Shown: one piece after another, positions 1-52,882 of the stretch
Layout of the letters: each line of letters opens with the position of its first letter
Numbering within the stretch: the first letter of the stretch is position 1
NCBI GenBank assembly: GCA_964187785.1
Contig: OZ076409.1
Span: 72,108,001-72,172,000, forward strand
Origin: Amphiscolops sp. MND2022
Lineage: Eukaryota
DNA length: 64,000 bases
Reading direction: 5' to 3'
Position numbers and translations under genes: made by a program
The notes under the pieces: model-generated
What the model was told of the DNA's origin: nothing
What the model saw: only the letters and a program-made list of their open reading frames with translations
Databases searched by the model: none

Positions 1-885
1 ATTAAACCCTCCAAAAATGGGCCAAAATTACACGAAAAAATTGACCTTAAATTTTTAAAATGTCAAAAAATCATCAAAACCACAGCTTCTTGGGGTTCTA
101 TCAACTCCACGTGGTCCACAGAGTATGCTAAAACAGGTTTTACCTGTTTCTGAGCTATATGTGAAAAAACCGACATTTTGGGGAAGAAAAACATACCATT
201 TCCTAAAAAATTTCAAATGCACGCCATTTGCCGTATGAGAATAGCACAGAAAACTATCACATACCGATCAACTCTACTTCTATTGTAGATTATCAGATTT
301 TTGTTTAGAACAAATTTTTATGGATATAAAAAATTTTTAAACCCTCCAAAAATGAGCCAAAATAACACGAAAAAATGGACCCTAAATTTTTAAAATGTCA
401 AAAAATTATCCAAACCACAGCTTCTTGGGGTTCTATCAGCTCCACGTGGTCCACAGAGTATGCTAAAACAGGTTTTGCCCGTTTTTGAGCAGTATATGAA
501 AAAGCCGACATTTTTGGGGAAGAAAAACATACCATTTCCTAAATAATTTCAAATGCAGGCAATTTGCCGTATGAGAGTAGCACAGAAAACTATCACACAC
601 CGATCAACTCTACTTCTTTTGTAGATTATCAGAATTATGTTTAGAGTAAAGTTTTATGGATATGAAAAATTTTTATACCCTCCAAAAATGGGCCAAAATG
701 ACACGAAAAAATTGACCTCAAATTTTTAAAATGTCAAAAAATTATCCAAACCACAGCGTCTTGGCGTTCTATCAACTCCAAATGACCTTCAGAGTATACC
801 AAACCAGGTATTGCCAATCTTTTGAGCAATATTTAAAAACACCGACTATTTGGCAAGAACCCCATAATATGTTCCATAAAAGAAG
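1..885 (+). repeat. ~335-bp tandem repeat inside L module (partial)
   Basis: Recurrent AAACCCTCCAAAAATG / CCACGTGGTCCACAGAG / CATACCATTTCC motifs at ~335-bp period. Confidence 0.9.
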
Positions 886-1081
886 TGAATCATTCCACAT
901 ATATACCCGGTCTAATATTTCCAAATTAGCGATAACATTTATACATGATGGTTTTTGAAAGTGAGCTTCATAAGAGGTTGAGATGTAATAATACGTAAAT
1001 GGACCCTAAGTTTCATTGAAATCTCAATGGAATACGTCCAATCAACTTCAATCCTAACTATTATATAACAAAAAACACTTG

Positions 1082-1122
1082 AGTACATTCCATCTCCCCA
1101 TCGGGGGAGATGAGAATGTACT
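1082..1122. other. Long internal inverted repeat of L modules (also in Z at 52565-52607)
   Basis: AGTACATTC-CATCTCCCC-ATCG-GGGGAGATG-A-GAATGTACT: 18-bp stem with a 1-nt bulge. Confidence 0.85.
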
Positions 1123-1936
1123 TTTCAAAAGCCAAAAACTTCGAATTTTAAATCTTTTGTAACATTGTATGTAACTGTTGAAACGATGAACGAATAAAAA
1201 TGCTTCTAGTACCTTCATCAATTTTTGCTTCAGCTCCTATTTCTGCAGAACAAAACCAAAAGACACACTTACAGCAGTTAAGTTCGATTGTATAACTCAG
1301 TGAATAAAGGTATGACTGAGGAAGTTCACAAGTTGTTTCAAAAGTTTCCGGCCTTCCAAAATCATGAAACGTCCACACAACCAAGATAGCAAGTGAAAGA
1401 ATGCTGAATGCACCTTATTAGATGAGATAAATAATGTGTGGAACTTGCCATTATCTCAAGATGACGTTGATTTATGATCTTTTAAGGATAGTTCGATATG
1501 TGACCACAATAGTGGAAAACTTATTACTATTTGAAGAACACCGTGGAAAGCGTTCAGAAAGGACAGTATATTTGTTTCGAGCATGCATGCGTGTGTTCCT
1601 TTGGTGACGTTAGCTTAGTGTACATGACGGAGGTATTCGAGAGATTATGATAGAGTTTACTCACAAGTCTTTGTTTTTTTAAACTTTCTATGCCGTTGAG
1701 TACATTCGTAAGGTACATCCATCCCCTTCTCTGGGAATGTACGTTTGCCAAATGACTGTCATCCAAAATTCGTAATCCGGACGAGTTTAACTACATAAAC
1801 ATGTGATGAGCGTTTTCAATTCACAACCGAATAACATTTTTTTTCTCGAAAATGATGATGGTTTTGATTTTGATGTCTTCTACTTTTATCATCATGCAAA
1901 CGACCTTACCATGTCTCTCTTCTGTCGTGATTTGTA

Positions 1937-2048
1937 CAACGCCACATAGCGTTCCGACGCCCACCGTCTGTGGGCATGCCGAGGCATGCCCTTCGACGAC
2001 GTATGCCAAATGAGCCATACCCGCACTCTGGAGTGCGGTAGCGGCTAG
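1937..2048 (+). other. Conserved module 3'-terminal cassette (representative copy; present before all 21 junctions)
   Basis: CAACGCCACATAG..GACGCCCACCGTCTGT-GGGCATGCC GA GGCATGCCC (1972-1991)-TTCGACGACGTATGCC, then a family-specific tail with hairpin (2021-2038), then CTAG. Confidence 0.9.
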
Positions 2049-2104
2049 GTGGGCGGGGGTAATTCCCCTTCAAAAAATTCGGCCGGCGGGTTGGGTCCTG
2101 CCGG
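2049..2104 (+). other. Module 5'-terminal hairpin pair (representative copy)
   Basis: GGGG-TAATT-CCCC (2056-2068) and CCGGCGGG-TTGGGT-CCTGCCGG (2083-2104, one G-T pair). Confidence 0.75.
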
Positions 2105-3585
2105 ACGTCAAATAGTGTGAAACATCCAGTAGGAAACGGCGACATTTATCAGCGATTTTAAAATTGAACCGTTAGAATTTGGACTTGGAGTGCATGCGGG
2201 CCCAAAATGCCCATACGAATCGAAGTTCCTGCTGACGTTAAGCGATAAAAACACTTTATAAAAAGTTATGGCCCATTTTACGTTCACTTAGAGAGGTAAA
2301 ATGAGGAAAATTTTAACAAAGTTGCTGATAACTCAAAATACATTAATTTTTGGACTTTGACTGTGAAACAAGCTTGGAACCTTCATTTCGTGGCTGTGGC
2401 ATTGCACTGAACACAAAAGATGTAAAGTTTTCACATTTTTTGAAAATTCGACATTTTTGAATTTTTTTCACTACTATCAGTACACTATATGTCAAAAACA
2501 CCTCAGAAAAAAATTTTTATTTGCTTAAATTTAGAAACCTCGGTATCCATGGTTTCCGTCAGTACCTACTCGCAGCCAAACACTCAACAAATTGCATCCA
2601 ATGTGAAAATAAAATTTTTTTCGGGGTCATAAGCGTTTCACAAGGATTTCTCAACTTAGTATTAATTTACAAAATGGTCATTTTGAACACAATATTTTCA
2701 TCGAGGCTTGTCGGCTATAGCCTTAATGTTCTAGAACGGTCCCACTGGCAACGTAGGAACCATTTATAGTAATAGAAAGTTTTAAAAAAATTTTTTCATC
2801 CGGTCTTCAGTCATTTTTCAGTCATTCGGAACTTAACTTAGAAAAATTTCGACCAAAATACCCATTTTTTGTCAGGTCGAAAATTCAAATTCAGATTTTT
2901 AAGCAAAATTATTAACTCTGACGTAACCCATGGGGCCCATGATACTCAAAACAACAATTGACACTGGTATCAATGGCTCCAATAACATATGAGTCGCGAT
3001 AAGACGTTATTTTGAGCATTACGTCTCAATTGAGGTAAAGATCTCGCAAGCCAGCGATCACTGTGAAATGTGATTTCATCAAAAATTTACTCATTTTTGT
3101 CAATCACTATGTGCACAGAATGCGTAGGGTGCGTTTCAGCACTATAATGAGGTATTTGAAAGCATCGAGTTGCTCAAGGGGTGGTATGAGACCTTTTTGT
3201 CCCATATACTTCTGTATTTTCCAAAATTTTTAGCCCAATATCTGGAAATACAAACATGACAAAATACTTTCAACTACTTTATTCAAAGGTTACAATATAG
3301 ATGAACACTGTGGTTGATCAGAAACTTTCATCTCTTTCGTTTTCCGAAATATTTCCCTTCGCATGTGTTACATTTGTAGCAGAAAAAAATCGATACAGAA
3401 AAATACGCTATTTTGCTAATATAGAATCGCAATGATTGTGCCTAAAAACTCTTTAAACACTTCTAACGCGACCTTACGCACCCAAAAAGATCGAAAAGGC
3501 TATTCACAATGGTGACTTGTGCTCTTTCAACGATCCTGACTGAACAATTTTCGCAAATTATTCAAGTACCTGTTAACTGAATCTC

Positions 3586-3633
3586 GTGATAGCCTTTTAA
3601 GTTGGCCTTGTGTCAACTTGGGAAGGCTATCAC
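3586..3633. other. Long internal inverted repeat of S modules (also in Y at 49012-49054)
   Basis: GTGATAGCCTTTTAAGTTGGC-CTTGT-GTCAACTTGGGAAGGCTATCAC: ~20-bp stem with G-T pairs. Confidence 0.85.
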
Positions 3634-4842
3634 ATCAAAAAATTTTCAACAAAAATACTTTTTGTTTATTGAAAATGACAGTCGATATATAATTTCGTGA
3701 TTCTATGCTACCGTTAGTACCTTCCATTAAGTCACCTGACGATTGCATTCAGTCTTTGATAAATACCTATGAACTCGAAGTCATATTTATAACTTTTTTG
3801 CTAAAAATAAACATCAAAATTATCCAAATTTATTAAAATTGAGTCTTTATTGTTTTTGTTTTTCTTTTTCTACTGTTATTAGGCCCATCAACTTCCTACA
3901 GCCACGCTCTCTGTCATACTGTACAACGCCACATAGTGTTGCGACGTGCACGGTCTGTGGGCATGCCGAGGCATGCCCTTCGACGACGTATGCCGAATAC
4001 CGCGGGCCTACGCCCGCGCTCCCCGGCTAGGTGGGCGGGGGTAATTCCCCAACTAAAAAATCGGCCGGCGGGTAGGGTCCTGCCGGCCGTCCAAAATCAA
4101 AAATATACTAGTAGAAAACGGCCGGTCAAACGAGCTATTTTTTTATTTAACCGTTAGAATTTGGGTTTAGATTGCATGCGGCCATGAAATGGCCATACGA
4201 ATCGAAGTTCCTGCTGACGTTTTGCGATTGAAACACTTTATAAAAAGTTATGGCCAATTTGTCAGTCACCTAGAAGGGCAAAATGAGGAAAATTTTAACA
4301 AAGTCGCTGATAACTCAAAATGTGTTATTTTTTGGACTTTGACTGTGAAACAAGCTTGGAACCTTCATTTCGTGGCTGTGGCATTGCACTGAACGCAAAA
4401 GATGTAAAGTTTTTACATTTTTTGAAAATTTGACATTTTTGAAATTTTTTTCACTACTATCAGTACCATATATGTCAAAAACACCTCAGAAAAAAAATTT
4501 TATTTGCTTTAACTTGGAAACCTTGGTATCCATGGTTTCTGTCGGAACCTACTCGCAACCAAACAACCAACAGTTTGCATCCAATGTGAAAATAAAAAAT
4601 TTTTCTGGGTCATAAGCGTTTCACAAGGATTTCTCAACTTAGTATTACTTTACAAAATGGTCATTTTGAACACAATATTTTCATCGAGGCTTGTCGGCTA
4701 TAGCCTTAATGTTCTAGAACGGTCCCACTGGCAACGTAGGAACCATTTATAGTAATAGAAAGTTTTTAAAAAATATTTTCACCCTGTTTTCAGTCATTTT
4801 TCAGTCATTCGGAACTTAACTTAGAAAAATTTCGACCAAAAT

Positions 4843-5960
4843 ACCCATTTTTTGACAGATCGAAAATTCAAATTCAACTTTTTAAGCAAAATTATTAACT
4901 CTGACGTAACCAGTGGGGCTCATGATACTCAAAAACACGATTGGGACTGGTACCAATGGCTCCAATATCATATGAGCCGCGATAAGACGTTATTTTGAGC
5001 AATACGTCTCAATTGAGGGAAACATCTCGCAAGCCTGGGATCACAGTTAAAAGTGATTTCGTCAAAAATTTACTCTTTTTCGTCAATCACTATGTACACA
5101 GAGTGCGTAGGGTGAGTTTCAGCACTATAATGCGGTTTTTGAAGGAATCGGTCTGCTCAAGGGGTGGTATGAGACATTTTTTTGCATGTAGTACTATATT
5201 TCTCAAAACTTTTAGCCCATTATCTCGAAAAGCTCACTTCGCAAATTACTTTCAGTTACTCTATTCGAAGCTTAGAATATATATGAACACTGTGGTTGAT
5301 CAGAAACTCTTGACTATTTTGTTTTTGGAAAAAAACTGCCTTGCATGTGTTACATTAGTGGCAGGAAAAATACCAGTAGCTCCAAAAATCACAATTTTGG
5401 ACGGACAGACCTGCAATGATGCAAAGCAAAAACGTTTCAACAACTTCTGGCGCCACTTTTTTTACCCAAGAGGTTCGAAAACACCATTAACAATGCTGAC
5501 ATTCGCAATAAATAAGATCGAGGTCTATTTACTAACACTTAGAATTTAAATTTTTTTCTCGGAAACCCATTATTGTCAGGTCGCAAATTCAAATTTGGTT
5601 TTGGAAGCAATACTTTTCACTCTGAAGCAAACCGTTGGGCCCAAAATACTCAACAACAACAAAAAGACTATCACCATATGCTCTAATAACATATGAGATG
5701 CGACTGTATGTTTTTAACACAATAACTCTCATTCTGAAGTAAACATGTTGAAAGCCTTGAATCACCGTGAGACGTGATTTCATCAAAAAACATTTCTTTT
5801 TCGTCAATCTTTATCTACACAGAACACGTTGTGTCATTTTCAGCCGTGAAATGAGCTTCTACCGTAATATGGGTTGCTCAAGGTGTTGTATAAGACAAAA
5901 ACTTCCTCTTTTCTACTATCTTCTTCAAATATTTCAACCCTTTGTCACAAGAAGTTAATA
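4843..5960 (+). repeat. Old internal duplication in L modules (~720-bp offset; representative copy)
   Basis: 4843-5180 (ACCCATTTTTTGACAGATCG...TGCTCAAGGGGTGGTATGAGAC) aligns by eye with 5564-5897 (ACCCATTATTGTCAGGTCG...TGCTCAAGGTGTTGTATAAGAC). Confidence 0.8.
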
Positions 5961-6264
5961 TTCAAAATCTCTTTGAAATGTTTCTTTAGGTTGGGGTGAA
6001 GTGTTAGAACAATAATTATGATCGAAGAATGATAGTATTGGTGTTTGGACCATGTCCGGATGAACAAATTGCAAAATCATGAAAAATTTCTTACCATTTT
6101 TGGTCATTTTGTCAGTACTAAAAATGTTAGCTGAAAAAGAATTTTTTGATGGCACCATTCGATTCCTCTCAAAAAGTTAGCTATATGAACTGTGTAATAA
6201 CCCCGTATCTTTTCAATTTAAATAATTTTAAAAAGCAAACTTTTTTGACTAAAATCCTAAAAAT

Positions 6265-7608
6265 CATACCATTTCCTAAAAAATTTCAAATGCCCCCCAT
6301 TTGACGTATAAGAATAGCACAGAAAACTATCACATACCGATCGACTCTACTTCCATTGTAGATTACCAGAATTTTGTTTAGAACAATTTTTGACGGATGC
6401 AAAAAAAAATTAAACCCTCCAAAAAAGGGCCAAAATTACACGAAAAAATTGACCTTAAAATTTTAAAATGTCGAAAAATCATCAAAACCACAGCTTCTTG
6501 GGGTTCTATCAACTCCACGTGGTCCACAGAGTATGTTAAAACAAGTTTTACCCGTATTTGAGCAATATGTGAAAAAGCCGACTTTTTTGGGAATGAAAAA
6601 CATACCATTTCCTAAAAAATTTCAGACGCACCCCATTTGACGTATAAGAATAGCACAGAAAACTATCACATACCGATCGACTCTACTTCCATTGTAGGTT
6701 ACCAGAATCTTGTTTAGAACAATTGTTGACGGATGCAAAAAAAATTAAACCCTCCAAAAATGGGCCAAAATTACACGAAAAAATTGACCTTAAATTTTTA
6801 AAATGTCAAAAAATCATCAAAACCACAGCTTCTTGGGGTTCTATCAATTCCACGTGGTCCACAGAGTATGCTAAAACAGGTTTTACCTGTTTCTGAGCTA
6901 TATGTGAAAAAACCGACATTTTGGGGAAGAAAAACATACCATTTCCTAAAAAACTTCAAATGCACGCCATTTGCCGTATGAGAATAGCACAGAAAACTAT
7001 CACATACCGATCAACTCTACTTCTATTGTAGATTATCAGATTTTTGTTTAGAACAAATTTTTATGGATATAAAAAATTTTTAAACCCTCCAAAAATGAGC
7101 CAAAATAACACCAAAAAATGGACCCTAAATTTTTAAAATGTCAAAAAATTATCCAAACCACAGCTTCTTGGGGTTCTATCAGCTCCACGTGGTCCACAGA
7201 GTATGCTAAAACAGGTTTTGCCCGTTTTTGAGCAGTATATGAAAAAGCCGACATTTTTGGGGAAGAAAAACATACCATTTCCTAAATAATTTCAAATGCA
7301 GGCAATTTGCCGTATGAGAGTAGCACAGAAAACTATCACACACCGATCAACTCTACTTCTTTTGTAGATTATCAGAATTATGTTTAGAGTAAAGTTTTAT
7401 GGATATGAAAAATTTTTATACCCTCCAAAAATGGGCCAAAATGACACGAAAAAATTGACCTCAAACTTTTAAAATGTCAAAAAATTATCCAAACCACAGC
7501 GTCTTGGCGTTCTATCAACTCCAAATGACCTTCAGAGTATACCAAACCAGGTATTGCCAATCTTTTGAGCAATATTTAAAAACACCGACTATTTGGCAAG
7601 AACACCAT
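6265..7608 (+). repeat. ~335-bp tandem repeat, ~4 copies
   Basis: CATACCATTTCCTAAA at 6265, 6601, 6935 and 7271 (periods 336, 334, 336). Confidence 0.92.
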
Positions 7609-8791
7609 AATATGTTCCATATAAGAAGTGAATCATTCCACATATATACCCGGTCTAATATTTCCAAATTAGCGATAACATTTATACATGATGGTTTTTG
7701 AAAGTGAGCTTCATAAGAGGTTGAGATGTAATAATACGTAAATGGACCCTAAGTTTCATTGAAATCTCAATGGAATACGTCCAATCAACTTCAATCCTAA
7801 CTATTATATAACAAAAAACACTTGAGTACATTCCATCTCCCCATCGGGGGAGATGAGAATGTACTTTTCAAAAGCCAAAAACTTCGAATTTTAAATCTTT
7901 TGTAACATTGTATGTAACTGTTGAAACGATGAACGAATAAAAATGCTTCTAGTACCTTCATCAATTTTTGCTTCAGCTCCTATTTCTGCAGAACAAAACC
8001 AAAAGACACACTTACAGCAGTTAAATTCGATTGTATAACTCAGTGAATAAAGGTATGACTGAGGAAGTTCACAAGTTGTTTCAAAAGTTTCCGGCCTTCC
8101 AAAATCATGAAACGTCCACACAACCAAGATAGCAAGTGAAAGAATGCTGAATGCACCTTATTAGATGAGATAAATAATGTGTGGAACTTGCCATTATCTC
8201 AAGATGACGTTGATTTATGATCTTTTAAGGATAGTTCGATATGTGACCACAATAGTGGAAAACTTATTACTATTTGAAGAACACCGTGGAAAGCGTTCAG
8301 AAAGGACAGTATATTTGTTTCGAGCATGCATGCGTGTGTTCCTTTGGTGACGTTAGCTTAGTGTACATGACGGAGGTATTCGAGAGATTATGATAGAGTT
8401 TACTCACAAGTCTTTGTTTTTTTAAACTTTCTATGCCGTTGAGTACATTCGTAAGGTACATCCATCCCCTTCTCTGGGAATGTACGTTTGCCAAATGACT
8501 GTCATCCAAAATTCGTAATCCGGACGAGTTTAACTACATAAACATGTGATGAGCGTTTTCAATTCACAACCGAATAACATTTTTTTTCTCGAAAATGATG
8601 ATGGTTTTGATTTTGATGTCTTCTACTTTTATCATCATGCAAACGACCTTACCATGTCTCTCTTCTGTCGTCATTTGTACAACGCCACATAGCGTTCCGA
8701 CGCCCACCGTCTGTGGGCATGCCGAGGCATGCCCTTCGACGACGTATGCCAAATGAGCCATACCCGCACTCTGGAGTGCGGTAGCGGCTAG

Positions 8792-11700
8792 GTGGGCGGG
8801 GGTAATTCCCCAACAAAAAAATCGGCCGGCGGGTCGGGTCCTGCCGGCCGTCCAAAATCAAAATTATACTAGTAGAAAACGGCCGGTCAAACGAGCTATT
8901 TTTTTATTTAACCGTTAGAATTTGGGTTTAGATTGCATGCGGCCATGAAATGGCCATACGAATCGAAGTTCCTGCTGACGTTTTGCGATTGAAACACTTT
9001 ATAAAAAGTTATGGCCAATTTGTCAGTCACCTAGAAGGGCAAAATGAGGAAAATTTCAACAAAGTCGCTGATAACTCAAAATGTGTTAATTTTTGGACTT
9101 TGACTGTGAAACAAGCTTGGAACCTTCATTTCGTGGCTGTGGCATTGCACTAAACACAAAAGATGTAAAGTTTTTACATTTTTTGAAAATTCGAAATATT
9201 TGAAATTTTTTTCACTACTATCAGTACCCCATATGTCAAAAACACCTCAGAAAAAAATTTTTATTTGCTTTAAATTGAATACCTTGGTATCCATGGTTTC
9301 TGTCGGAACCTACTCGCAGCCAAACACCCAACAGTTTGCATCCAATGTGAAAATAATTTTTTTTTCGAGGTTATAGGTGTATCACAAGGATTTCACAACT
9401 TAGTATTAATTTACAAAATGGTCATTTTCAACATCATATTTTCATCGAGGCATGTCGGATATAGTCTTAATGCTCACGACCGGTCCTACTGGCAACGTAA
9501 TACCCATTTATAGAAATATAAAGTTTAAAAAAAATATTTTCACCCGATCTTCAGTCATTTTTCAGTCATTCGGAACTTAACTTAGAAAAATTTCGACCAA
9601 AATACCCATTTTTGTCAGGTCGAAAATTCAAATTCAGCTTTTTAAGCTAAATTATTAAATCTGACGTAACCAGTGGGGCCAATGAAACTCAAAACTGCAA
9701 TAGACACTGGTATCAATGGCTCCAATAACATATGAGTCGCGATAAGGCGTTATTTTGAGCATTACGTCTCAATTGAGGTAAACATCTCGCAAGCCAGAGA
9801 TCACTGTGAAAAGTGATTTCATCAAAAATTTACTCATTTTCGTCAATCACCATGTGCACAGAATGCGTAGGGTGAGTTTCAGCACTATAATGCGGTTTTT
9901 GAAGGAATCGGTCTGCTCAAGGGGTGGTATGAGACATTTTTTTTCATGTAGTACTATATTTCTCAAAACTTTTAGCCCATTATCTCGAAAAGCTCACTTC
10001 GCAAATTACTTTCAGTTACTCTATTCGAAGCTTAGAATATATATGAACACTGTGGTTGATCAGAAACTCTTGACTATTTTGTTTTTGGAAAAAAACTGCC
10101 TTGCATGTGTTACATTAGTGGCAGGAAAAATACCAGTAGCTCCAAAAATCACAATTTTGGACGGACAGACCTGCAATGATGCAAAGCAAAAACGTTTCAA
10201 CAACTTCTGGCGCCACTTTTTTTACCCAAGAGGTTCGAAATTACTATTAACAATGCTGACATTCGCTATAAATAAGATCGAGGTCAATTTACTAACACTT
10301 AGGTTATACATTTATATCTGAGAAACCATTCTTTGTCAGGTCGCAATTTTAAATTTAGTTTGGGAAACAATACTTTTCACTCTGAAGCAAACCGTTGGGC
10401 CCAAATTACTCAAAAACTACAAAAAGACTGTCACCATATGCCCTAATAGCATATGAGATTCGACCGTTCGTTTTTAACACAAAAACTCTCATCCGAAGTA
10501 AACATGTTGAAAGCCTTGAATCACCGTGAGAAATGATTTCATCAAAAAATATTCCTTTTTCGTCAATCTTCATCTACACAGAACACGTTGTGTCATTTTC
10601 AGCCGTGAAATGAGCTTCTACCGTAATATGGGTTGCTCAAGGTGTTGTATAAGACAAAAACTTCCTCTTTTCTACTATCTTCTTCAAATATTTCAACCCT
10701 TTGTCACAAGAAGTTAATATTCAAAATCTCTTTGAAATGTTTCTTTAGGTTGGGGTGAAGTGTTAGAACAATAATTATGATCGAAGAATGATAGTATTGG
10801 TGTTTGGACCATGTCCGGATGAACAAATTGCAAAATCATGAAAAATTTCTTACCATTTTTGGTCATTTTGTCAGTACTAAAAATGTTAGCTGAAAAAGAA
10901 TTTTTTTGATGGCACCATTGGATTCCTCTCAAAAAGTTAGCTATATGAACTGTGTAATAACCCCGTATCTTTTCAATTTAAATAATTTTAAAAAGCAAAC
11001 TTTTTTGACTAAAATCCTAAAAATCATACCATTTCCTAAAAAATTTCAAATGCCCCCCATTTGACGTATAAGAATAGCACAGAAAACTATCACATACCGA
11101 TCGACTCTACTTCCATTGTAGATTACCAGAATTTTGTTTAGAACAATTTTTGACGGATGCAAAAAAAATTTAAACCCTCCAAAAAAGGGCCAAAATTACA
11201 CGAAAAAATTGACCTTAAAATTTTAAAATGTCGAAAAATCATCAAAACCACAGCTTCTTGGGGTTCTATCAACTCCACGTGGTCCACAGAGTATGTTAAA
11301 ACAAGTTTTACCCGTATTTGAGCAATATGTGAAAAAGCCGACTTTTTTGGGAATGAAAAACATACCATTTCCTAAAAAATTTCAAACGCACCCCATTTGA
11401 CGTATAAGAATAGCACAGAAAACTATCACATACCGATCGACTCTACTTCCATTGTAGGTTACCAGAATCTTGTTTAGAACAATTGTTGACGGATGCAAAA
11501 AAAAATTAAACCCTCCAAAAATGGGCCAAAATTACACGAAAAAATTGACCTTAAATTTTTAAAATGTCAAAAAATCATCAAAACCACAGCTTCTTGGGGT
11601 TCTATCAACTCCACGTGGTCCACAGAGTATGCTAAAACAGGTTTTACCTGTTTCTGAGCTATATGTGAAAAAACCGACATTTTGGGGAAGAAAAACATAC

Positions 11701-13552
11701 CATTTCTTAAAAAATTTCAAATGCACGCCATTTGCCGTATGAGAATAGCACAGAAAACTATCACATACCGATCAACTCTACTTCTATTGTAGATTATCAG
11801 ATTTTTGTTTAGAACAAATTTTTATGGATATAAAAAATTTTTAAACCCTCCAAAAATGAGCCAAAATAACACGAAAAAATGGACCCTAAATTTTTAAAAT
11901 GTCAAAAAATTATCCAAACCACAGCTTCTTGGGGTTCTATCAGCTCCACGTGGTCCACAGAGTATGCTAAAACAGGTTTTGCCCGTTTTTGAGCAGTATA
12001 TGAAAAAGCCGACATTTTTGGGGAAGAAAAACATACCATTTCCTAAATAATTTCAAATGCAGGCAATTTGCCGTATGAGAGTAGCACAGAAAACTATCAC
12101 ACACCGATCAACTCTACTTCTTTTGTAGATTATCAGAATTATGTTTAGAGTAAAGTTTTATGGATATGAAAAATTTTTATACCCTCCAAAAATGGGCCAA
12201 AATGACACAAAAAAATTGACCTCAAATTTTTAAAATGTCAAAAAATTATCCAAACCACAGCGTCTTGGCGTTCTATCAACTCCAAATGACCTTCAGAGTA
12301 TACCAAACCAGGTATTGCCAATCTTTTGAGCAATATTTAAAAACACCGACTATTTGGCAAGAACACGATAATATGTTCCATATAAGAAGTGAATCATTCC
12401 ACATATATACCCGGTCTAATATTTCCAAATTAGCGATAACATTTATACATGATGGTTTTTGAAAGTGAGCTTCATAAGAGGTTGAGATGTAATAATACGT
12501 AAATGGACCCTAAGTTTCATTGAAATCTCAATGGAATACGTCCAATCAACTTCAATCCTAACTATTATATAACAAAAAACACTTGAGTACATTCCATCTC
12601 CCCATCGGGGGAGATGAGAATGTACTTTTCAAAAGCCAAAAACTTCGAATTTTAAATCTTTTGTAACATTGTATGTAACTGTTGAAACGATGAACGAATA
12701 AAAATGCTTCTAGTACCTTCATCAATTTTTGCTTCAGCTCCTATTTCTGCAGAACAAAACCAAAAGACACACTTACAGCAGTTAAGTTCGATTGTATAAC
12801 TCAGTGAATAAAGGTATGACTGAGGAAGTTCACAAGTTGTTTCAAAAGTTTCCGGCCTTCCAAAATCATGAAACGTCCACACAACCAAGATAGCAAGTGA
12901 AAGAATGCTGAATGCACCTTATTAGATGAGATAAATAATGTGTGGAACTTGCCATTATCTCAAGATGACGTTGATTTATGATCTTTTAAGGATAGTTCGA
13001 TATGTGACCACAATAGTGGAAAACTTATTACTATTTGAAGAACACCGTGGAAAGCGTTCAGAAAGGACAGTATATTTGTTTCGAGCATGCATGCGTGTGT
13101 TCCTTTGGTGACGTTAGCTTAGTGTACATGACGGAGGTATTCGAGAGATTATGATAGAGTTTACTCACAAGTCTTTGTTTTTTTAAACTTTCTATGCCGT
13201 TGAGTACATTCGTAAGGTACATCCATCCCCTTCTCTGGGAATGTACGTTTGCCAAATGACTGTCATCCAAAATTCGTAATCCGGACGAGTTTAACTACAT
13301 AAACATGTGATGAGCGTTTTCAATTCACAACCGAATAACATTTTTTTTCTCGAAAATGATGATGGTTTTGATTTTGATGTCTTCTACTTTTATCATCATG
13401 CAAACGACCTTACCATGTCTCTCTTCTGTCGTCATTTGTACAACGCCACATAGCGTTCCGACGCCCACCGTCTGTGGGCATGCCGAGGCATGCCCTTCGA
13501 CGACGTATGCCAAATGAGCCATACCCGCACTCTGGAGTGCGGTAGCGGCTAG
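8792..13552 (+). mobile_element. L-class module (4761 bp), variant 5' part
   Basis: Same termini and layout as 4031-8791. The 5' ~1 kb carries different variants. Confidence 0.65.
11025..12369 (+). repeat. ~335-bp tandem repeat, ~4 copies
   Basis: Same block as 6265-7608. Confidence 0.9.
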
Positions 13553-16500
13553 GTGGGCGGGGGTAATTCCCCAACTAAAAAATCGGCCGGCGGGTAGGGT
13601 CCTGCCGGCCGTCCAAAATCAAAAATATACTAGTAGAAAACGGCCGGTCAAACGAGCTATTTTTTATTTAACCGTTAGAATTTGGGTTTAGATTGCATGC
13701 GGCCATGAAATGGCCATACGAATCGAAGTTCCTGCTGACGTTTTGCGATTGAAACACTTTATAAAAAGTTATGGCCAATTTGTCAGTCACCTAGAAGGGC
13801 AAAATGAGGAAAATTTTAACAAAGTCGCTAATAACTCAAAATGTGTTATTTTTTGGACTTTGACTGTGAAACAAGCTTGGAACCTTCATTTCGTGGCTGT
13901 GGCATTGCACTGAACCCAAAAGATGTAAAGTTTTTACATTTTTTGAAAATTTGACATTTTTGAAATTTTTTTCACTACTATCAGTACCATATATGTCAAA
14001 AACACCTCAGAAAAAAAATTTTATTTGCTTTAACTTGGAAACCTTGGTATCCATGGTTTCTGTCGGAACCTACTCGCAACCAAACAACCAACAGTTTGCA
14101 TCCAATGTGAAAATAAAAAATTTTTCTGGGTCATAAGCGTTTCACAAGGATTTCTCAACTTAGTATTAATTTACAAAATGGTCATTTTGAACACAATATT
14201 TTCATCGAGGCTTGTCGGCTATAGCCTTAATGTTCTAGAACGGTCCCACTGGCAACGTAGGAACCATTTATAGTAATAGAAAGTTTAAAAAAAATATTTT
14301 CACCCTGTCTTCAGTCATTTTTCAGTCATTCGGAACTTAACTTAGAAAAATTTCGACCAAAATACCCATTTTTTGACAGATCGAAAATTCAAATTCAACT
14401 TTTTAAGCAAAATTAGTAACTCTGACGTAACCAGTGGGGCTCATGATACTCAAAAACACGATTGGGACTGGTACCAATGGCTCCAATATCATATGAGCCG
14501 CGATAAGACGTTATTTTGAGCAATACGTCTCAATTGAGGGAAACATCTCGCAAGCCTGGGATCACAGTTAAAAGTGATTTCGTCAAAAATTTACTCTTTT
14601 TCGTCAATCACTATGTACACAGAGTGCGTAGGGTGAGTTTCAGCACTATAATGCGGTTTTTGAAGGAATCGGTCTGCTCAAGGGGTGGTATGAGACATTT
14701 TTTTTGCATGTAGTACTATATTTCTCAAAACTTTTAGCCCAATATCTCGAAAAGCTCACTTCGCAAATTACTTTCAGTTACTCTATTCGAAGCTTAGAAT
14801 TTATATGAACACTGTGGTTGATCAGAAACTCTTGACTATTTTGTTTTTGGAAAAAAACTGCCTTGCATGTGTTACATTAGTGGCAGGAAAAATACCAGTA
14901 GCTCCAAAAATCACAATTTTGGACGGACAGACCTGCAATGATGCAAAGCAAAAACGTTTCAACAACTTCTGGCGCCACTTTTTTTACCCAAGAGGTTCGA
15001 AATTACTATTAACAATGCTGACATTCGCTATAAATAAGATCGAGGTCAATTTACTAACACTTAGGTTATACATTTATATCTGAGAAACCATTCTTTGTCA
15101 GGTCGCAATTTTAAATTTAGTTTGGGAAGCAATACTTTTCACTCTGAAGCAAACCGTTGGGCCCAAATTACTCAAAAACTACAAAAAGACTGTCACCATA
15201 TGCCCTAATAGCATATGAGATTCGACCGTATGTTTTTAACACAAAAACTCTCATCCGAAGTAAACATGTTGAAAGCCTTGAATCACCGTGAGAAATGATT
15301 TCATCAAAAAATATTCCTTTTTCGTCAATCTTTATCTACACAGAACACGTTGTGTCATTTTCAGCCGTGAAATGAGCTTCTACCGTAATATGGGTTGCTC
15401 AAGGTGTTGTATAAGACAAAAACTTCCTCTTTTCTACTATCTTCTTCAAATATTTCAACCCTTTGTCACAAGAAGTTAATATTCAAAATCTCTTTGAAAT
15501 GTTTCTTTAGGTTGGGGTGAAGTGTTAGAACAATAATTATGATCGAAGAATGATAGTATTGGTGTTTGGACCATGTCCGGATGAACAAATTGCAAAATCA
15601 TGAAAAATTTCTTACCATTTTTGGTCATTTTGTCAGTACTAAAAATGTTAGCTGAAAAAGAATTTTTTGATGGCACCATTGGATTCCTCTCAAAAAGTTA
15701 GCTATATGAACTGTGTAATAACCCCGTATCTTTTCAATTTAAATAATTTTAAAAAGCAAACTTTTTTGACTAAAATCCTAAAAATGATACCATTTCCTAA
15801 AAAATTTCAAATGCCCCCCATTTGACGTATAAGAATAGCACAGAAAACTATCACATACCGATCGACTCTACTTCCATTGTAGATTACCAGAATTTTGTTT
15901 AGAACAATTTTTGACGGATGCAAAAAAAATTTAAACCCTCCAAAAAAGGGCCAAAATTACACGAAAAAATTGACCTTAAAATTTTAAAATGTCGAAAAAT
16001 CATCAAAACCACAGCTTCTTGGGGTTCTATCAACTACACGTGGTCCACAGAGTATGTTAAAACAAGTTTTACCCGTATTTGAGCAATATGTGAAAAAGCC
16101 GACTTTTTTGGGAATGAAAAACATACCATTTCCTAAAAAATTTCAAACGCACCCCATTTGACGTATAAGAATAGCACAGAAAACTATCACATACCGATCG
16201 ACTCTACTTCCATTGTAGGTTACCAGAATCTTGTTTAGAACAATTGTTGACGGATGCAAAAAAAAATTAAACCCTCCAAAAATGGGCCAAAATTACACGA
16301 AAAAATTGACCTTAAAATTTTAAAATGTCAAAAAATCATCAAAACCACAGCTTCTTGGGGTTCTATCAACTCCACGTGGTCCACAGAGTATGCTAAAACA
16401 GGTTTTACATGTTTCTGAGCTATATGTGAAAAAACCGACATTTTGGGGAAGAAAAACATACCATTTCTTAAAAAATTTCAAATGCACGCCATTTGCCGTA

Positions 16501-18312
16501 TGAGAATAGCACAGAAAACTATCACATACCGATCAACTCTACTTCTATTGTAGATTATCAGATTTTTGTTTAGAACAAATTTTTATGGATATAAAAAATT
16601 TTTAAACCCTCCAAAAATGAGCCAAAATAACACGAAAAAATGGACCCTAAATTTTTAAAATGTCAAAAAATTATCCAAACCACAGCTTCTTGGGGTTCTA
16701 TCAGCTCCACGTGGTCCACAGAGTATGCTAAAACAGGTTTTGCCCGTTTTTGAGCAGTATATGAAAAAGCCGACATTTTTGGGGAAGAAAAACATACCAT
16801 TTCCTAAATAATTTCAAATGCAGGCAATTTGCCATATGAGAGTAGCACAGAAAACTATCACACACCGATCAACTCTACTTCTTTTGTAGATTATCAGAAT
16901 TATGTTTAGAGTAAAGTTTTATGGATATGAAAAATTTTTATACCCTCCAAAAATGGGCCAAAATGACACGAAAAAATTGACCTCAAATTTTTAAAATGTC
17001 AAAAAATTATCCAAACCACAGCGTCTTGGCGTTCTATCAACTCCAAATGACCTTCAGAGTATACCAAACCAGGTATTGCCAATCTTTTGAGCAATATTTA
17101 AAAACACCGACTATTTGGCAAGAACACCATAATATGTTCCATATAAGAAGTGAATCATTCCACATATATACCCGGTCTAATATTTCCAAATTAGCGATAA
17201 CATTTATACATGATGGTTTTTGAAAGTGAGCTTCATAAGAGGTTGAGATGTAATAATACGTAAATGGACCCTAAGTTTCATTGAAATCTCAATGGAATAC
17301 GTCCAATCAACTTCAATCCTAACTATTATATAACAAAAAACACTTGAGTACATTCCATCTCCCCATCGGGGGAGATGAGAATGTACTTTTCAAAAGCCAA
17401 AAACTTCGAATTTTAAGTCTTTTGTAACATTGTATGTAACTGTTGAAACGATGAACGAATGAAAATGCTTCTAGTACCTTCATCAATTTTTGCTTCAGCT
17501 CCTATTTCTGCAGAACAAAACCAAAAGACACACTTACAGCAGTTAAGTTCGATTGTATAACTCAGTGAGTAAAGGTATGACTGAGGAAGTTCACAAGTTG
17601 TTTCAAAAGTTTCCGGCCTTCCAAAATCATGAAACGTCCACACAACCAAGATAGCAAGTGAAAGAATGCTGAATGCACCTTATTAGATGAGATAAATAAT
17701 GTGTGGAACTTGCCATTATCTCAAGATGACGTTGATTTATGATCTTTTAAGGATAGTTCGATATGTGACCACAATAGTGGAAAACTTATTACTATTTGAA
17801 GAACACCGTGGAAAGCGTTCAGAAAGGACAGTATATTTGTTTCGAGCATGCATGCGTGTGTTCCTTTGGTGACGTTAGCTTAGTGTACATGACGGAGGTA
17901 TTCGAGAGATTATGATAGAGTTTACTCACAAGTCTTTGTTTTTTTAAACTTTCTATGCCGTTGAGTACATTCGTAAGGTACATCCATCCCCTTCTCTGGG
18001 AATGTACGTTTGCCAAATGACTGTCATCCAAAATTCGTAATCCGGACGAGTTTAACTACATAAACATGTGATGAGCGTTTTCAATTCACAACCGAATAAC
18101 ATTTTTTTCTCGAAAATGATGATGGTTTTGATTTTGATGTCTTCTACTTTTATCATCATGCAAACGACCTTACCATGTCTCTCTTCTGTCGTCATTTGTA
18201 CAACGCCACATAGCGTTCCGACGCCCACCGTCTGTGGGCATGCCGAGGCATGCCCTTCGACGACGTATGCCAAATGAGCCATACCCGCACTCTGGAGTGC
18301 GGTAGCGGCTAG
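13553..18312 (+). mobile_element. L-class module (4760 bp)
   Basis: Same termini and layout. Near-identical to the module starting at 59646. Confidence 0.65.
15786..17130 (+). repeat. ~335-bp tandem repeat, ~4 copies
   Basis: Same block as 6265-7608. Confidence 0.9.
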
Positions 18313-20304
18313 GTGGGCGGGGGTAATTCCCCAACAAAAATTACGGCCGGCGGGTTGGGTCCTGCCGGACGTTCAAATAGCGCGAAGCATCTAGTAGAAA
18401 ACAAGGAGTCCTGAAACAGCGATTTTAAAATTGAACCGTTAGAATTTGGTTTTAGATTGCATGCGGCCCTAAAATCCCCATACGAATGGAAGTTCCTGCT
18501 GGCGTTAAGCGATTGAAATAATATATAAAAAGTTATGGCCCATTTTTGGGTCACCGAGAAGGTCAAAATGAAGAAAATTTTAACTAAGTTGCTGATAACT
18601 CAAAATGTGGTAATTTTTGGACTTTGACTGTGAAACAAGCTTGGAACCTTCATTTCGTGGCTGTGGCATTGCACTGAACACAAAAGATGTAAAGTTTTCA
18701 CATTTTTTGAAAATTCGACATTTTTGAATTTTTTTTCACTACTATCAGTACACTATATGTCAAAAACACCTCTGAAAAATTTTTTTATTTGCTTAAATTT
18801 AGAAACCTCGGTATCCATGGTTTCCGTCAGTACCTACTCGCTGCCAAACACTCAACAGTTTGCATCCAATGTGAAAATAAAATTTTTTTCGAGGTCTTAG
18901 GTGTTTCACAAGGATTTCTCAACTTAGTATCAATTTACAAATTGGTCATTTTGAACACATTATTTTCATCGAAGCGTGTCATATACCGCCCTAATGCTCA
19001 CGAACGGGCCTACTGGCAACGTTGGAACCATTTATAGTAATAAAAAGTTTTAAAAAATTTTTTTCACCCCGTCTTCAGTCATTTTACACACTTTCGGAAC
19101 TTAACTTAGAAAAATTTCAACCAAAAACCCATTTTTTGTCAAGTCGAAAATTCAAATTCAGCTTTTTAAGCAAAATAAATAAATCTGACATAACCAGTGG
19201 GGCCCATGAAACTCAAAACCACGATTGAGACTGGTATCAATGGCTCCAATAACATATGAGTCGCGATAAGACGCTATTTTGAGCAAAACATCTCAATTGA
19301 GGTAAAGATCTCGCAAGCCAGCGATCACTGTGAAATGTGATTTCATCAAAAATTTACTCTTTTTTGTCAATCACTATGTGCACAGAATGCGTAGGGTGCG
19401 TTTCAGCACTATAATGAGGTTTTTGAAGGCATCGAGTTGCTCAAGGGGTGGTATGAGACATTTTTGTCCCATATACTACTGTAGTTTCCAAAATTTTTAC
19501 CCCAATATCTGGAAATACAAACTTGACAAAATACTTTCAACTACTTTATTCAAAGGTTACAATATAGATGAACACTGTGGTTGATAAGAAACTTTCATCT
19601 CTTTCGTTTTCGGAAATATTTCCGTTCGCATGTGTTACATTCATAGCAGAAAAAAAAATCGAAACTGAAAAATACGCTATTTTGCTGATATAGAATCGCA
19701 ATGATTGTGCCTAAAAACTCTTTAAACACTTCTAACGCAACCACCTTACGCACCCAAAATGATCGAAAATGCTATTCACAATGGTGACATGTGCTCTTTC
19801 TACGATCCTGGCTGGACAAGGTTTGCATATTTTTCAAGTACCTGTCAGCTAAATCTTGTGATAGCCTTTTCAGTTGGCCTTGTGTCAACTTGGGAAGGCT
19901 ATCACATCAAAAAACCATCAACAAAAATAATTTTTGTTTATTGGATCTTACAGTCGATACTTTTTTTCGTGATTCTATACTACCGTTAGTATATTTCATC
20001 AGGTCACCTTACGATTGCATTCAGTCTTTGATAAAAACCTATGAACTCAAAGTCACATTTATATATTTTTTTGCCAAAAAATAATATCAAAAATATCTAA
20101 AATACATAAAATAGAGTCTTTAACATTTTTACGTTTCAAGTTTTTGCCGTTATCAGGCCAATCAACGTCCTAGAGCCACATCCTGCCACATACTGTACAA
20201 CGCCACATAGTGTTGCGACGTGCACAGTCTGTGGGCATGCCGAGGCATGCCCTTCGACGACGTATGCCGAATACCGCGGGCCTACGCCCGCGCTCCCCGG
20301 CTAG
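18313..20304 (+). mobile_element. S-class module (1992 bp)
   Basis: GTGG start, S-type tail + CTAG. Near-identical to 25066-27053 and 44811-46799. Confidence 0.65.
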
Positions 20305-23300
20305 GTGGGCGGGGGTAATTCCCCAACTAAAAAATCGGCCGGCGGGTAGGGTCCTGCCGGCCGTCCAAAATCAAAATTATACTAGTAGAAAACGGCCGGT
20401 CAAACGAGCTATTTTTTTATTTAACCGTTAGAATTTGGGTTTAGATTGCATGCGGCCATGAAATGGCCATACGAATCGAAGTTCCTGCTGACGATTTGCG
20501 ATTGAAACACTTTATAAAAAGTTATGGCCAATTTGTCATTCACCTAGAAGGGCAAAATGAGGAAAATTTTAACAAAGTCGCTGATAACTCAAAATGTAAT
20601 AATTTTTGGACTTTGACAGTGAAACAAGCTTGGAACTGTCATTTCGTGGCTGTGGCATTGCACTGAACACAAAAGATGTAAAGTTTTCACATTTTTTGAA
20701 AATTCGACATTTTTGAATTTTTTTCACTACTATCAGTACACTATATGTCAAAAACGCCTCTGAAAAAAATTTTTATTTGCTTAAAATTAGAAACCTTGGT
20801 ATCCATGGTTTCCGTCAGTACCTAATCGCTGCCAAACGCTCAACAGTTTGCATCCAATGTGAAAATATAATTTTTTTCGAGGTCATAGGTGTTTCACAAG
20901 GATTTCTCAACTTAGTATCTATTTACAAATTGGTCATTTTGAACACATTATTTTCATCGAAGCGTGTCAGATACCACCCTAATGCTCACAAATGGGCCTA
21001 CTGGCAACGTTGGAACCATTTTTAGTAATAGAAAGTATTAAAAAAATATTTTCACCCGGTCTTCAGTCATTTTTCAGACATTCGGTACTTAACTTAGAAA
21101 AATTTCGCATCAAAAACCCATATTTGGTAGGGTCGAAAATTGAAATTCAGTTTTTTATGCAAAATGATTAACTCTGACGTAACCAGTGGAGCCCATGATA
21201 CTCAAAAACACGATTGGGACTGGTATCAGTGGCTCCAATAACATATGAGCCGCGATAAGACGTTATTCAGAGCAAACGCTCTAAATCGAAGTAAACATCT
21301 CTGAAGCCTGGGATCACAGTGAAATGTGATATCACCAAAAGTTTACTCTTTTTTGTCAATCACTATGTACACAGAGTGCGTAGGGTGAGTTTCAGGACTA
21401 TAATGAGGTTTTTGAAGTAATCGCGCTGCTCAAGGGGTGGTATGAGACTATTCTTTCCCATATACTACTACATTTCCATAAATTTGCAGTCCATTGTCTT
21501 GGAAAGATAACTTCACAAAAACAATTTTTCTACTCTATTCAGTTATTAGAATAAAGTTGAACACTGTGGTTGATCAGAAATGCTCAATTCTTTTGGTTTT
21601 TAAAAAAATTCCTTCGCATTCGTTACATTTGTGGAAGGAAGGTTATCAGTAGCTCCAAAAAAAAACGAAATTTAGCACGAACAGACATGCAACGATGCAA
21701 AGCAAAAACGTTTTTACAACTTCCGACGTCATTATTTTACCCAAGAAGTTCGAAAATATCATTCGCAATGCTGTCATTCGCTATATATACGATCGCGGTC
21801 AATTTACAAACATTTAGATTTCATTGTTCTGCTTGAAAACCAATTTTTGTCAGGTCGAAATTTTAAATTTTGCCTGGGTAGCAATACCCTTCACGCTGAA
21901 GTAAACAGTGGGGCCCAAGTTACTCAAAAACAAGAAAGAGACTGCTACAATATGTCCTAATAACATATGGACCACGATAGTACGTTTTTCACACAAAAAA
22001 CTCTCATCCGAAGTAAATATGTTGAAAGCTTTTAATCACCGTGAGAAGTGATTTCATCAAAAAATAACTCTTTTTTGTCAATCACTGTTTACACAGAATT
22101 TGTAAAGTTAGTTTGAGTCATGAAATGAGGCTTTACCGTAATATGGGTTGCTCAAGGTGTTATATAAGACAAAAACTTCCTCTTTACTACTAGCTTCTTC
22201 AAATATTTCAACCCTTTGTCACAATAAGTTAATATTCAAAATCTCTTTGAAATGTATCTTTATGTTGGGGTGAAGTCTAAGAACAATAACTATGATCGAA
22301 GAATGATAGTACTGGTGTTTGAACCATGTCCGGATGAACAAATCACAAAATCATCAAAAAATTGTTCCCTTTTTTGGTTATTTTGGCAGTACTAAAAATG
22401 TTAGCTGATAAATAATTTTTTCGATGGCACCATTGGATTCCTCTCAAAAAGTTGGTTATATGACCTGTGTAATAACCCCGTATCTTTTCAATTTAAATAT
22501 ATTTAAAAAGCCAACTATTTTGACCAAAATCCTAAAAATCATACCATTTCCTAAAAATTTTCAAATGCACCCCATTTGACGTATAAGATAAGCACAGAAA
22601 ACTATCATATACCGATCAACTCTACTCCCATTGTAGATTATTATAATTTTGTTTAGAATGAATTTTGATGGATATTAAAAAAATTTTGAACCCTCCAAAA
22701 ATGGGCCAAAATTACACGAAAAAATTGACCTTAAAATACCAAAATGTCAAAAAATCATCAAAACCACGGCTTCTTGGGGTTCTATTAACTCCGCGTGGTC
22801 CACAGAGTATGCTAAAACAGGATTTACCCGTTTTTGAGCAATATGTGAAAAAGCCGACATTTTTGGGAAAGAAAAACATACCATTTCCTAAAAAAATTCA
22901 AATGCACGTCATTTGCCGTATTAGAATAGCACAGAAAACTATCACATACCAATCAACTCTACTTTCATTGCAGATGAACAGAATTTTGTTTAGAATAAAT
23001 TTTACCGGATAATAAAAAAAGTTGAATCCTTCAAAAATGGGCCAAAATTACACGAAAAAATGGACATTAAAAATTTAAAATGTCAAAAAATCATCAAAAC
23101 AACAGCTTCTTGGGCTTCTATCAACTCCACGAGGTCCACAGAGTATGCTAAAACAGGTTTTACCCGTTTTTGAGCAATATCTGAAAAAGCCGACATTTTT
23201 GGGAAAGAAAAACATACCATTTCCTAAAAAAATTCAAATGCACGCCATTTGCCGTATGAAAATAGCACAGAAAACTATCACATACCAATCAACTCTACTT

Positions 23301-32000: not shown

Positions 32001-32110
32001 ACCAATAACACCTTCAACTGTTAATCAACGCCCACCGTCCGTAGGCATGCCGAGGCATGCCTTTCGACGACGCGCGCCAAAAACAATATAACGGCGCCAC
32101 CCGCTTCTGG
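29039..32110 (+). mobile_element. Singleton module X (3072 bp)
   Basis: Starts GTGGTCAG directly after CTAG. The body is not alignable by eye to L or S. Ends with the variant box AGGCATGCC-GA-GGCATGCCT (32043-32062) and CTGG. Confidence 0.65.
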
Positions 32111-51578: not shown

Positions 51579-52882
51579 GTGGCCACGACCATGGTTTCTT
51601 GCGTATCTTGTCGAATCCTTTGTCGTTGCCGGCCGGGGAGGGACCCGTTTGCCGGCGTGTGTAGTGTGGGGCCCCCATACCCAAAAAGTGGTATTTTTTT
51701 CAGAGATCTCAAAATCGGCCCATCAGAATTGCCTGAAATTTGGCATGAGGCTCCCAATTGGGGAAAAAATAAGAAGTGTAGGAGGCGACTTGTTCGGGTA
51801 AATATTGTATGTTGACTTTTGGCCAAAATAGTGTTCCCCCCCAACATGGGCAAAATCACATGAGGTGTAAAAATATGATCACAACTTTTGAACCTTTGGA
51901 TTTAGGGGTACGGTCGTGGACCACATTAAGCAAGAGCTTTGGTGAGCGGGTAGGATAGATGGGTTTTGATCCCAGTACCTTCAACCACTTTTGAGAAATT
52001 AACGTTTCAAACAAACATCCGGGAGGTATCTGTTGCCCCTGAAGGCAGGTTTTTCGCCATTTTCAATGTGAAGGAGTGGGTTTAGCGCAACGTGTGTGGG
52101 GTGCTTTTTTGTTGCCCGTGTGCGGAGCGTTGTATAGAGGTGCTGGTTGTTGAAATTGGAAAAGTTGGTAAAAAGTTATACCTATACCCCCCCTACTGTC
52201 TCTGCCATTCAATTTTTTTTTCAACTTCAGGCCTCCCAAAGGTGAGAAACTTCCACACAACTAGTATTGCAAGTGAATGCATGTGGAAAGTACTCGGATA
52301 GACGAGAAAAATGAGCTATAGAACGACTCTGTAGCTTAACTTGACGTTGACTTATGACATTTTGAGTGTGAGCTTGCTATGTGAGAGAAAAATTCAAAAT
52401 TGAAAATCGAAGCTAAGTCTCATCCAAAACTCATCGAAATACGTTCAATCCATCCCAAAGCGGATTAATTCCAGATATATAGTGCAGCAACACTATTCAA
52501 GACCATTTGACACAATTTTACTAGTTTTGACATTGTATTATTCATCCGAGAGCACAAAACAGTTGGGTACATTCCATCTCCCTTTCGGGGGAGATGAGAA
52601 TGTACCCGCTAAATGACACGCACCATGGCCTAATTTTTACCTTTATGCGACGTTTTCTAGGCCTTCGCGCAAGCCCACTAATATTTAGACTGGTTTCTTT
52701 CTCTTTCACTCCAAACATTCCGTCCGTACTAACCACCTTACACACCACCAGCAGCTCAACGACACATCTGTAACGTCAACGCCACATACTCGCATCAACG
52801 GCCACCGTCCGTGGGCATGCCGAGGCATGCCCTTCGACGACGTATGCCCGTTGTCACAACAGGGCGCCCCCATTCCCGCTAG
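51579..52882 (+). mobile_element. Singleton module Z (1304 bp)
   Basis: Starts GTGGCCACG after CTAG. Ends with the box (52813-52832), its own tail hairpin and CTAG. Confidence 0.65.

Follow-up and report, generated by a model that had tools for sequence, protein, structure and literature searches.

A conserved double palindrome, and candidate p53-family element, before every joint of a spacer-free array of putatively mobile non-coding units

A 20-bp palindrome recurs along a contig of Amphiscolops sp. MND2022, each time shortly before the point at which one non-coding unit gives way to the next, and this raises the question of what reads the box and whether it is read as double-stranded DNA or as a folded hairpin. 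We analyzed 64,000 nucleotides of this contig (the window; 37% GC, no N) and found the 18-nt core of the box at 21 places with 0 mismatches; shuffled sequence yields 0.01 core matches even allowing 3 mismatches. Each joint between units has one box (21/21), the 20-mer ending 48-58 nt before it, in agreement with a sequence-only reading of this DNA that had placed a palindrome about 50-60 bp before each joint. The copy at 1972..1991 (+ strand) consists of two copies of the 8-bp palindrome GGCATGCC at a 10-bp period, or one turn of the helix; this palindrome within each box arm had been overlooked in the sequence-only reading, as had the fit to p53-family response elements. The outer base pair of the box is G...C in 19/21 window copies, the others of this kind starting at 3959, 8715, 13476, 18236, 20233, 24988, 26982, 28967, 34024, 36008, 37994, 39977, 44734, 46728, 51507, 52813, 54797, and 59569. 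It is A...T in 2/21 copies, those of unit X (32043..32062, + strand) and unit Y (49514..49533, + strand), where both outer bases had indeed been reported to change together.

By self-comparison, the window (1..64000, + strand) consists of non-coding units, 20 complete and 2 cut, that follow one another head to tail without spacers. We delimited them by cutting at GTGG after every box, which left nothing between units. The 21 joints lie at 2049, 4031, 8792, 13553, 18313, 20305, 25066, 27054, 29039, 32111, 34096, 36080, 38066, 40049, 44811, 46800, 49591, 51579, 52883, 54875, and 59646. There are 11 A units of ~1.98 kb each, B units of ~4.76 kb (6 complete and 2 cut), and the single-copy units X (3072 nt, 29039..32110), Y (2791 nt, 46800..49590), and Z (1304 nt, 51579..52882), all on the + strand. 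B units contain a 336-bp internal tandem repeat in about 4 copies (for example 6260..7594, + strand). No minus-strand self matches of the window were found among 753 BLAST rows. The longest ORFs are short (15 ORFs of 100-184 aa), and a Pfam scan of 24 read-through frames (B, X, Y, Z+A1) gave nothing above cut-off and no coding relic; the lone match, to an influenza PB2 domain (E 3.5e-4), was below cut-off and considered chance. CpG observed/expected is 0.96 over the whole window; CpG is thus not depleted, and the repeats bear no mark of long-term decay through CpG methylation.

The sequence-only reading also held that the box persists where unit bodies share nothing. This is not literally so: the first ~1340 nt of A and B are alike at 85-89%, and X, Y, and Z are mutually alike in patches of 28-80 nt; with the other units they have in common the ends and a few patches only. 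X, Y, and Z (29039, 46800, 51579) each lie between two A-type units, an arrangement that was spotted post hoc and is matched by 2698/200,000 unit-order shuffles. Two B units 36 kb apart (4031-8791 and 40049-44810) are 99.94% identical with different neighbors, suggesting a very recent copy or conversion.

We found the same joint anatomy outside the window. Metagenome contigs gave 3 box matches, of which 1 is a true relative (L002, 1172 nt); the two others (L001, L003) were rejected as GC-rich chance palindromes. L002 is another joint, formed by different units: its upstream unit has an A...T box and its downstream unit has the same head type, and the anatomy is thus not an assembly artefact of the window. 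The 18-mer occurs at 58 loci in prokaryote genomes, and among the 60 matches examined (these loci plus L001 and L003) none had both flanks. Viral contigs gave 0 matches to the box pattern and 4 and 2 matches to two other motifs, none in matching context, and there was no match in phages and plasmids. The lack of genes in the window and of any match in context in the prokaryote, phage, and plasmid collections would suit a eukaryotic host. Two sequencing runs (shares 0.12 and 0.10; no RNA set among those listed) were compared with 27000-36200. They yielded 5 and 34 short contigs, of which none covers the whole interval, and one of these, an X2 contig, ends at the joint, at 32110.

How the units came to be neighbors can be read from the joints. 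The core GGTGG (2048..2052, + strand, at the first joint) is present at 21/21 window joints and as GGTG in L002, the joints reading RGGTG, and neighbors switch within it. All 21 heads are full length and start GTGG after CTRR, and we saw no host DNA between units at the joints and no target duplication. Joints with the same downstream unit agree leftward for as little as 1 nt (J0 vs J9), and joints with the same upstream unit (A) agree over just 4 nt to the right where X, Y, or Z comes next, which puts the exchange inside GGTGG (GGTG counting L002). The box itself is not the exchange point, because the tail from box to joint always accompanies the upstream body, which also led us to reject a 13-6-13 recombinase crossover site at the box. 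These units are very probably mobile and joined via a site-specific process.

Ordinary homologous exchange acts too, because the A units are, over their length, patchworks of one another. Three of them (M5, M7, and M15) are 99.0-99.3% identical, yet their neighbors differ. Units M2 and M14 agree at 99.9% and have homologous flanks. Mosaicism and the M2/M14 pair would suit a complex satellite produced by unequal crossing over and gene conversion, in which the box is a homogenized, functionless relic made symmetric via template switching. Correction of a palindrome by template switching gives one symmetric double change, as seen here. Homologous exchange is, however, unable to place X, Y, and Z at the same base, because they have only 4-5 nt in common with other heads. 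Conservation also falls sharply outside the block around the box, the head stems covary across unrelated bodies, and L002 has the same joint anatomy, and we consider a pure satellite origin quite improbable.

The conserved block is asymmetric, extending from about -12 to +14 around the box. Its upstream part (1958..1968, + strand) comprises CGCCCACC and an invariant GTC (1966-1968); CGCCCACC gives an inverted match to the B unit's own tip, and its invariant part is CAC only. To the right of the box, outside the p53 consensus, lies the 10-mer TTCGACGACG (1992..2001, + strand), which is as fixed as the box: none of its bases differs in any of 13 pairwise comparisons (10/10 identical in each). 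A looser second upstream motif, ACAACGCCACATA (1936..1948, + strand), is kept in A, B, and Z and decayed in X, Y, and L002. In 100-nt windows upstream of the block, identity goes down to 41-78%, and in the tail it is about 40-80%. Box and following 10 nt together (30 nt) show 0 changes versus 13.5 expected from B/B1/B2 and A/A1 body divergence, meaning that the block is constrained, or homogenized, in sequence; homologous exchange among A units could be the homogenizer. The longest invariant run among B, B1, and B2 is 40 nt and falls in the block (18 such runs). The proposal that the box is the recognition site of the mobilizing machinery therefore fares well in one half, since a conserved cis-acting site of mobile units is supported, and poorly in its hairpin version.

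The hairpin version drew on the paired outer-base change, taken as compensatory, and on a flanking GTC...GAC, taken as an extension of the stem. Among nine aligned ends, 8/9 inner stem pairs never vary, and neither do the three GTC/GAC pairs, so that GTC/GAC is silent on pairing; the next pair out is broken in 3/9 aligned ends and 11/22 copies. The box stem has no wobble pair and its 2-nt centre is invariant. Both bases of the outer pair do change, but this is the lone double change (1/13 pairs), a result reached by 365/500 shuffles. Because X, Y, and L002 have 48 identical bases in common around the box, the double change is probably one event and so weak evidence of folding. Cell-based covariation measures were reached by 6/500 shuffles, a level that kinship alone can give. 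Given that 8/9 pairs are invariant and the ten downstream bases equally fixed, sequence recognition is indicated. The box is probably a double-stranded sequence site, and a double-stranded protein site would be more likely than a hairpin.

As a single-stranded hairpin, the box would be the 3' stop or recognition signal of a Helitron2/Helentron-like element, with CGCCCACC as its 3' asymmetric inverted repeat. The folding energy of the box is about -11 to -14 kcal/mol on both strands, which suits this idea in stability but shows no strand preference. In Helitron2, as described in PMC3627910, the 3' repeat is placed immediately upstream of the hairpin, as CGCCCACC is here. The inverted match between tip and subterminal motif spans 7-8 nt in B, B2, and Z and 5 nt in X and Y, and in Z and B2 the tip and subterminal motif are each altered together, which is suggestive. 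A partner test of tip against subterminal motif gave 36/42 pairs, equalled by 120/720 permutations and thus not significant, and the head hairpin excludes the tip repeat. The box also lies 76-85 nt from the end, versus palindromes at 20-30 nt in Helitron2 and 38-60 nt in mite HINEs (PMC3627910, PMC4067079). With the near-absence of double changes, the missing wobble pairs, the invariant centre, and the broken outer pair, these points make a hairpin improbable.

If the box is a double-stranded site, its sequence suggests a candidate reader. The classical p53-family response element is RRRCWWGYYY x2 (PMC3485254), with a spacer of 0-13. The box resembles it in its 20 bp, two palindromic half-sites, CATG cores, and spacer of 0, and matches it at 19/20 positions in both alleles; the mismatch is at position 10, G against the classical Y. 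With a wider cut-off, the zebrafish p53 consensus is VRRCATGYCB (PMC2807882, Table 1), and the box matches two copies of it at 20/20 with all four half-sites fitting. Full VRRCATGYCB x2 sites number 21 in the window and are exclusively the boxes. The box varies at positions 1 and 20 only, and changes at half-site positions 1, 2, 9, and 10 matter little for zebrafish p53 (PMC2807882), so that variation is limited to tolerant outer positions. A full-site oligonucleotide for p73 binding (PMC3794606) is identical to the box except at positions 10 and 11.

We counted how often such a fit arises by layout, in a comparison limited to p53 consensuses and with p53 picked after the sequence was seen: of 4,194,304 dyads of the 9+2+9 layout, 108 fit the zebrafish consensus and 1536 are within one mismatch of the classical one, as are 2/2520 arm permutations. 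Together, the double palindrome and the p53 fit point to a tetramer, possibly a host protein and not necessarily the mobilizing enzyme. Tolerant positions 2, 9, 10, 11, 12, and 19 are all fixed, as is the 10-mer after the box, which p53 alone leaves unexplained, and the fixed flanks lie outside any such element. G-to-A and C-to-T are common changes anyway, which counts against a p53 reading of the variation. The box may be called a striking but unproven candidate p53-family element, and p53-family binding is tentatively, at somewhat under even odds, one reason for its conservation.

A close rival to the p53-type reading is that the transposase or recombinase of the element itself binds box and flanks as double-stranded DNA, with two dimers on the two GGCATGCC repeats. 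This would keep the right end in place or flag joints already present as targets, and the likeness to p53 sites would be coincidental. Such a site would account for the entire fixed block from -12 to +14, beyond the positions that p53 reads, and non-autonomous units might be expected to keep only what mobilization needs. Coincidence is also less demanding once double symmetry is granted: of 16,384 doubly symmetric dyads, 54 fit the zebrafish consensus and 192 the classical one (about 1%). Set against this are the complete fit to a measured consensus, variation at p53-tolerant positions only, and a box-to-joint distance of 48-58 nt without helical phasing. We regard the own-enzyme site as possible, though on the unlikely side.

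A folded signal does exist in these units, at their heads. In the head that follows the first joint, a hairpin with a variable paired stem and a purine-rich loop lies at 2083..2104 (+ strand). The motif GGG-NNGGGN-CCY was found at +36 to +56 in 21/21 heads and nowhere else in the window, and a stricter head pattern was found 20 times versus 0.02 expected. The stems of A/B, X, Y, Z, B2, and L002 have different sequences but all pair, G-T pairs included, and the hairpin is stabler on the + strand in 9/9 heads, with z below -2.3 in 8/9. The covarying folded signal is the head hairpin, unlike the box. A further small G-run/C-run hairpin at ~+8 to +20 (e.g. 2056-2068) occurs in the A, B, Y, B2, and L002 heads and is unclear in X and Z.

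G-T pairs in the head hairpin, together with a box at promoter-like distance upstream of each start, would also suit RNA-based units (retroelement partners or structured RNA) in which the transcript starts at the joint and the box serves as a promoter element or as a stem in the RNA. Rfam gave 0 gathering-score matches in 65,172 bases (window and L002) and nothing better than E 0.7 in bases 1-10000, a tRNA scan found none, and no poly(A) or simple-repeat tails were seen at joints in the window. As 21/21 heads are moreover full length, an RNA-based origin is very improbable. A hammerhead-like pattern gave 8 loose matches, every one in B.

At the opposite end, the example tail (2021..2048, + strand) has a hairpin at 2021-2038 and then CTAG at 2045-2048. 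Tail hairpins of 7-8 bp, in four different sequences and 10-12 nt before CTAG, are present in 4/9 distinct tails; a good tail hairpin is absent in X, Y, Z, B2, and L002 (z -0.7 to 0.5). Eight of the nine distinct tails end in CTRR, and L002 ends CGAG; a Helitron1 would have a 3' CTRR and, about 11 nt before it, a hairpin of 16-20 nt. The hairpin before CTAG in A and B tails is a likeness to Helitron1, where Helraiser has a tail hairpin before CTAG (PMC4778049), and head-to-tail junctions are likewise known there from circles and tandem arrays (PMC5876387); the accessible text of the latter did not mention a promoter needed in cis by Helraiser or Helitron ends. Unlike Helitron1 as described in these sources, our units have no 5' TC and no AT target, the tail hairpin is missing in 5/9, and unrelated families are mixed.

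Comparison with Helitron2/Helentron elements (HINE, DINE-1, and Cg_HINE; PMC3627910, PMC4067079, and PMC7492417) shows kilobase non-coding units with internal tandem repeats and no target duplication in both; internal satellites are known in oyster HINEs, which are Helentron-derived (PMC7492417). Both also have hairpins at both ends (here the head in 21/21 and the box palindrome in 21/21 tails) and possibly an asymmetric inverted repeat just upstream of the palindrome. The differences are that ends here are G-rich GGTGG versus T termini inserted in TT or T-rich targets, that the repeat here is 5-8 nt and not significant, that there is no microsatellite, and that families are chained without host DNA. 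More generally, Helitrons as described in PMC4067079 and PMC5148889 start with TC or T and target AT or TT, and Paramecium Helitrons are site-restricted (10.1101/2025.11.06.686955). We do not assign the units to Helitron1 or Helentron, whose termini they lack, nor to Crypton or Replitron, whose autonomous partners would encode a tyrosine recombinase and a Y1 Rep without helicase, respectively; a Helitron partner would encode RepHel.

On the choice of enzyme, the single-strand head hairpin, the tail hairpin with CTAG in 4/9 tails, the CTRR end in 8/9 tails, the internal satellites, and the Helitron2-like position of the inverted match favor an HUH enzyme. Against it stand the lack of a TC or T start and of an AT or TT target, the five tails without a hairpin, and the non-significant inverted match. 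We lean slightly towards an HUH enzyme, a tyrosine recombinase being the less probable choice. The latter would make the units Crypton-like: excised as double-stranded circles, with recombination at GGTG(G), a direct repeat of 4-5 bp, and with the box as an accessory site of the arm type, which concerns the enzyme and is compatible with either a p53-type or a transposase-type box. A direct-repeat GGTGG flanks each complete unit, exchange is confined there, and there is one orientation with no target duplication. No conserved dyad or inverted 11-13 bp arms were found around the joint across 9 joint types, whereas this enzyme would lead one to look for two such arms about a 6-8 bp exchange region, and the G-T pairs in the head hairpin favor a single strand. 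In Cryptons, terminal direct repeats measure 4-6 bp (mostly TATGG in CryptonS) and circles have been proposed (PMC3212892), and some CryptonV elements are target-specific (PMC8869645); in these accounts the likeness extends to the short direct repeat at both unit ends and the lack of inverted termini and of target duplication. The animal Cryptons in PMC3212892 are without terminal repeats, however, GGTGG is absent from 6 supplementary files of that paper, no recombinase gene was seen in the window, and its accessible text describes no mixed chains. A Crypton-like origin is thus doubtful.

Replitrons, as presented in the accessible text of PMC10288648, share with these units short terminal direct repeats, orientation-specific insertion, a subterminal palindrome, and non-autonomous partners, but are described from plants, algae, and protists and without such arrays, and no Rep gene was found in the window. 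SaTar arrays of guayule and rice (PMC5907723) are likewise linear, non-nested chains of unrelated non-autonomous elements for which a circle model was proposed; they are Mutator-like and joined via microsatellites, in contrast to the direct abutment at a 5-nt core seen here.

Our best full reading, to which we assign a probability of roughly 0.38, is that the box is a p53-type double-stranded site in non-autonomous rolling-circle units joined at GGTGG. A transposase encoded elsewhere would peel one strand off from the head (hairpin at +38), peeling would stop at the next GGTGG, and the circle would close. Insertion of the circle's joint at an existing joint would then produce chains of mixed families with neither host DNA nor target duplication; this step, inferred here, explains the chain under either enzyme. 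A p53-type tetramer would recognize the box in double-stranded form. In a circle or chain, the box would lie shortly before a start, and a p53-family protein bound there might gate or repress mobilization. The fixed flanks of the box may serve a second factor, probably the transposase. A bolder and unlikely extension is that the units are an integron-like eukaryotic cassette chain with host p53/p63 as mobilization switch or targeting factor; if true, transposition would be tied directly to the DNA-damage or germ-line response.

The component parts are familiar: subterminal palindromes in non-autonomous elements, Helitrons in tandem arrays (PMC5876387), and chained unrelated elements. Judged by the papers covered, the ends differ from those described for Helitrons, Cryptons, and Replitrons. 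In the literature covered, which leaves out most subscription papers and repeat catalogues, we found no description of these ends or of spacer-free GGTGG-joined mixed chains, and no p53 site kept across transposon families. To our knowledge, p53 sites in repeats are mostly confined to single families and are not necessarily relevant to the element. The zebrafish EnSpm-N6_DR (PMC3485254) is a non-autonomous DNA transposon with p53 response elements that are functional in reporter assays; its sites are peculiar to one family, whereas the box occupies a fixed subterminal place across unrelated bodies. The array would indicate an unrecognized self-targeting transposon group, and the box bears on whether the p53 family acts directly on transposons, in restraint or in service. 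Because the same near-optimal site recurs at one subterminal position in otherwise unrelated bodies, a direct test is simple (one 20-mer, two natural alleles). Should the box be just a transposase site of a repeat that is already in the catalogues, the result would be a modest one.

Finally, we noted several smaller features. Phage contigs L066 and L067 carry, at about 2950-3090 (minus strand), almost the same non-coding sequence, which includes short hairpins and a motif like a ribosome-binding site; it has no relation to the box. Y has an imperfect internal repeat of ~500 nt (47100-48300), partly resembling X and Z, and GTGAAGGAGT occurs once in X, twice in Y, and once in Z. An internal hairpin of 38-39 nt with a variable loop is common to B, Z, and L002 at varying distance from the end (window 1083-1121, 52567-52605, and 58673-58710; L002 567-605; -13.7 to -16.2 kcal/mol), with a decayed second copy in B near 1700. 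A second internal hairpin, of 43-44 nt between GATAGCC and GGCTATC, is found in all 11 A-type units and in Y (for example 3588-3631, 19860-19903, and 49012-49054).
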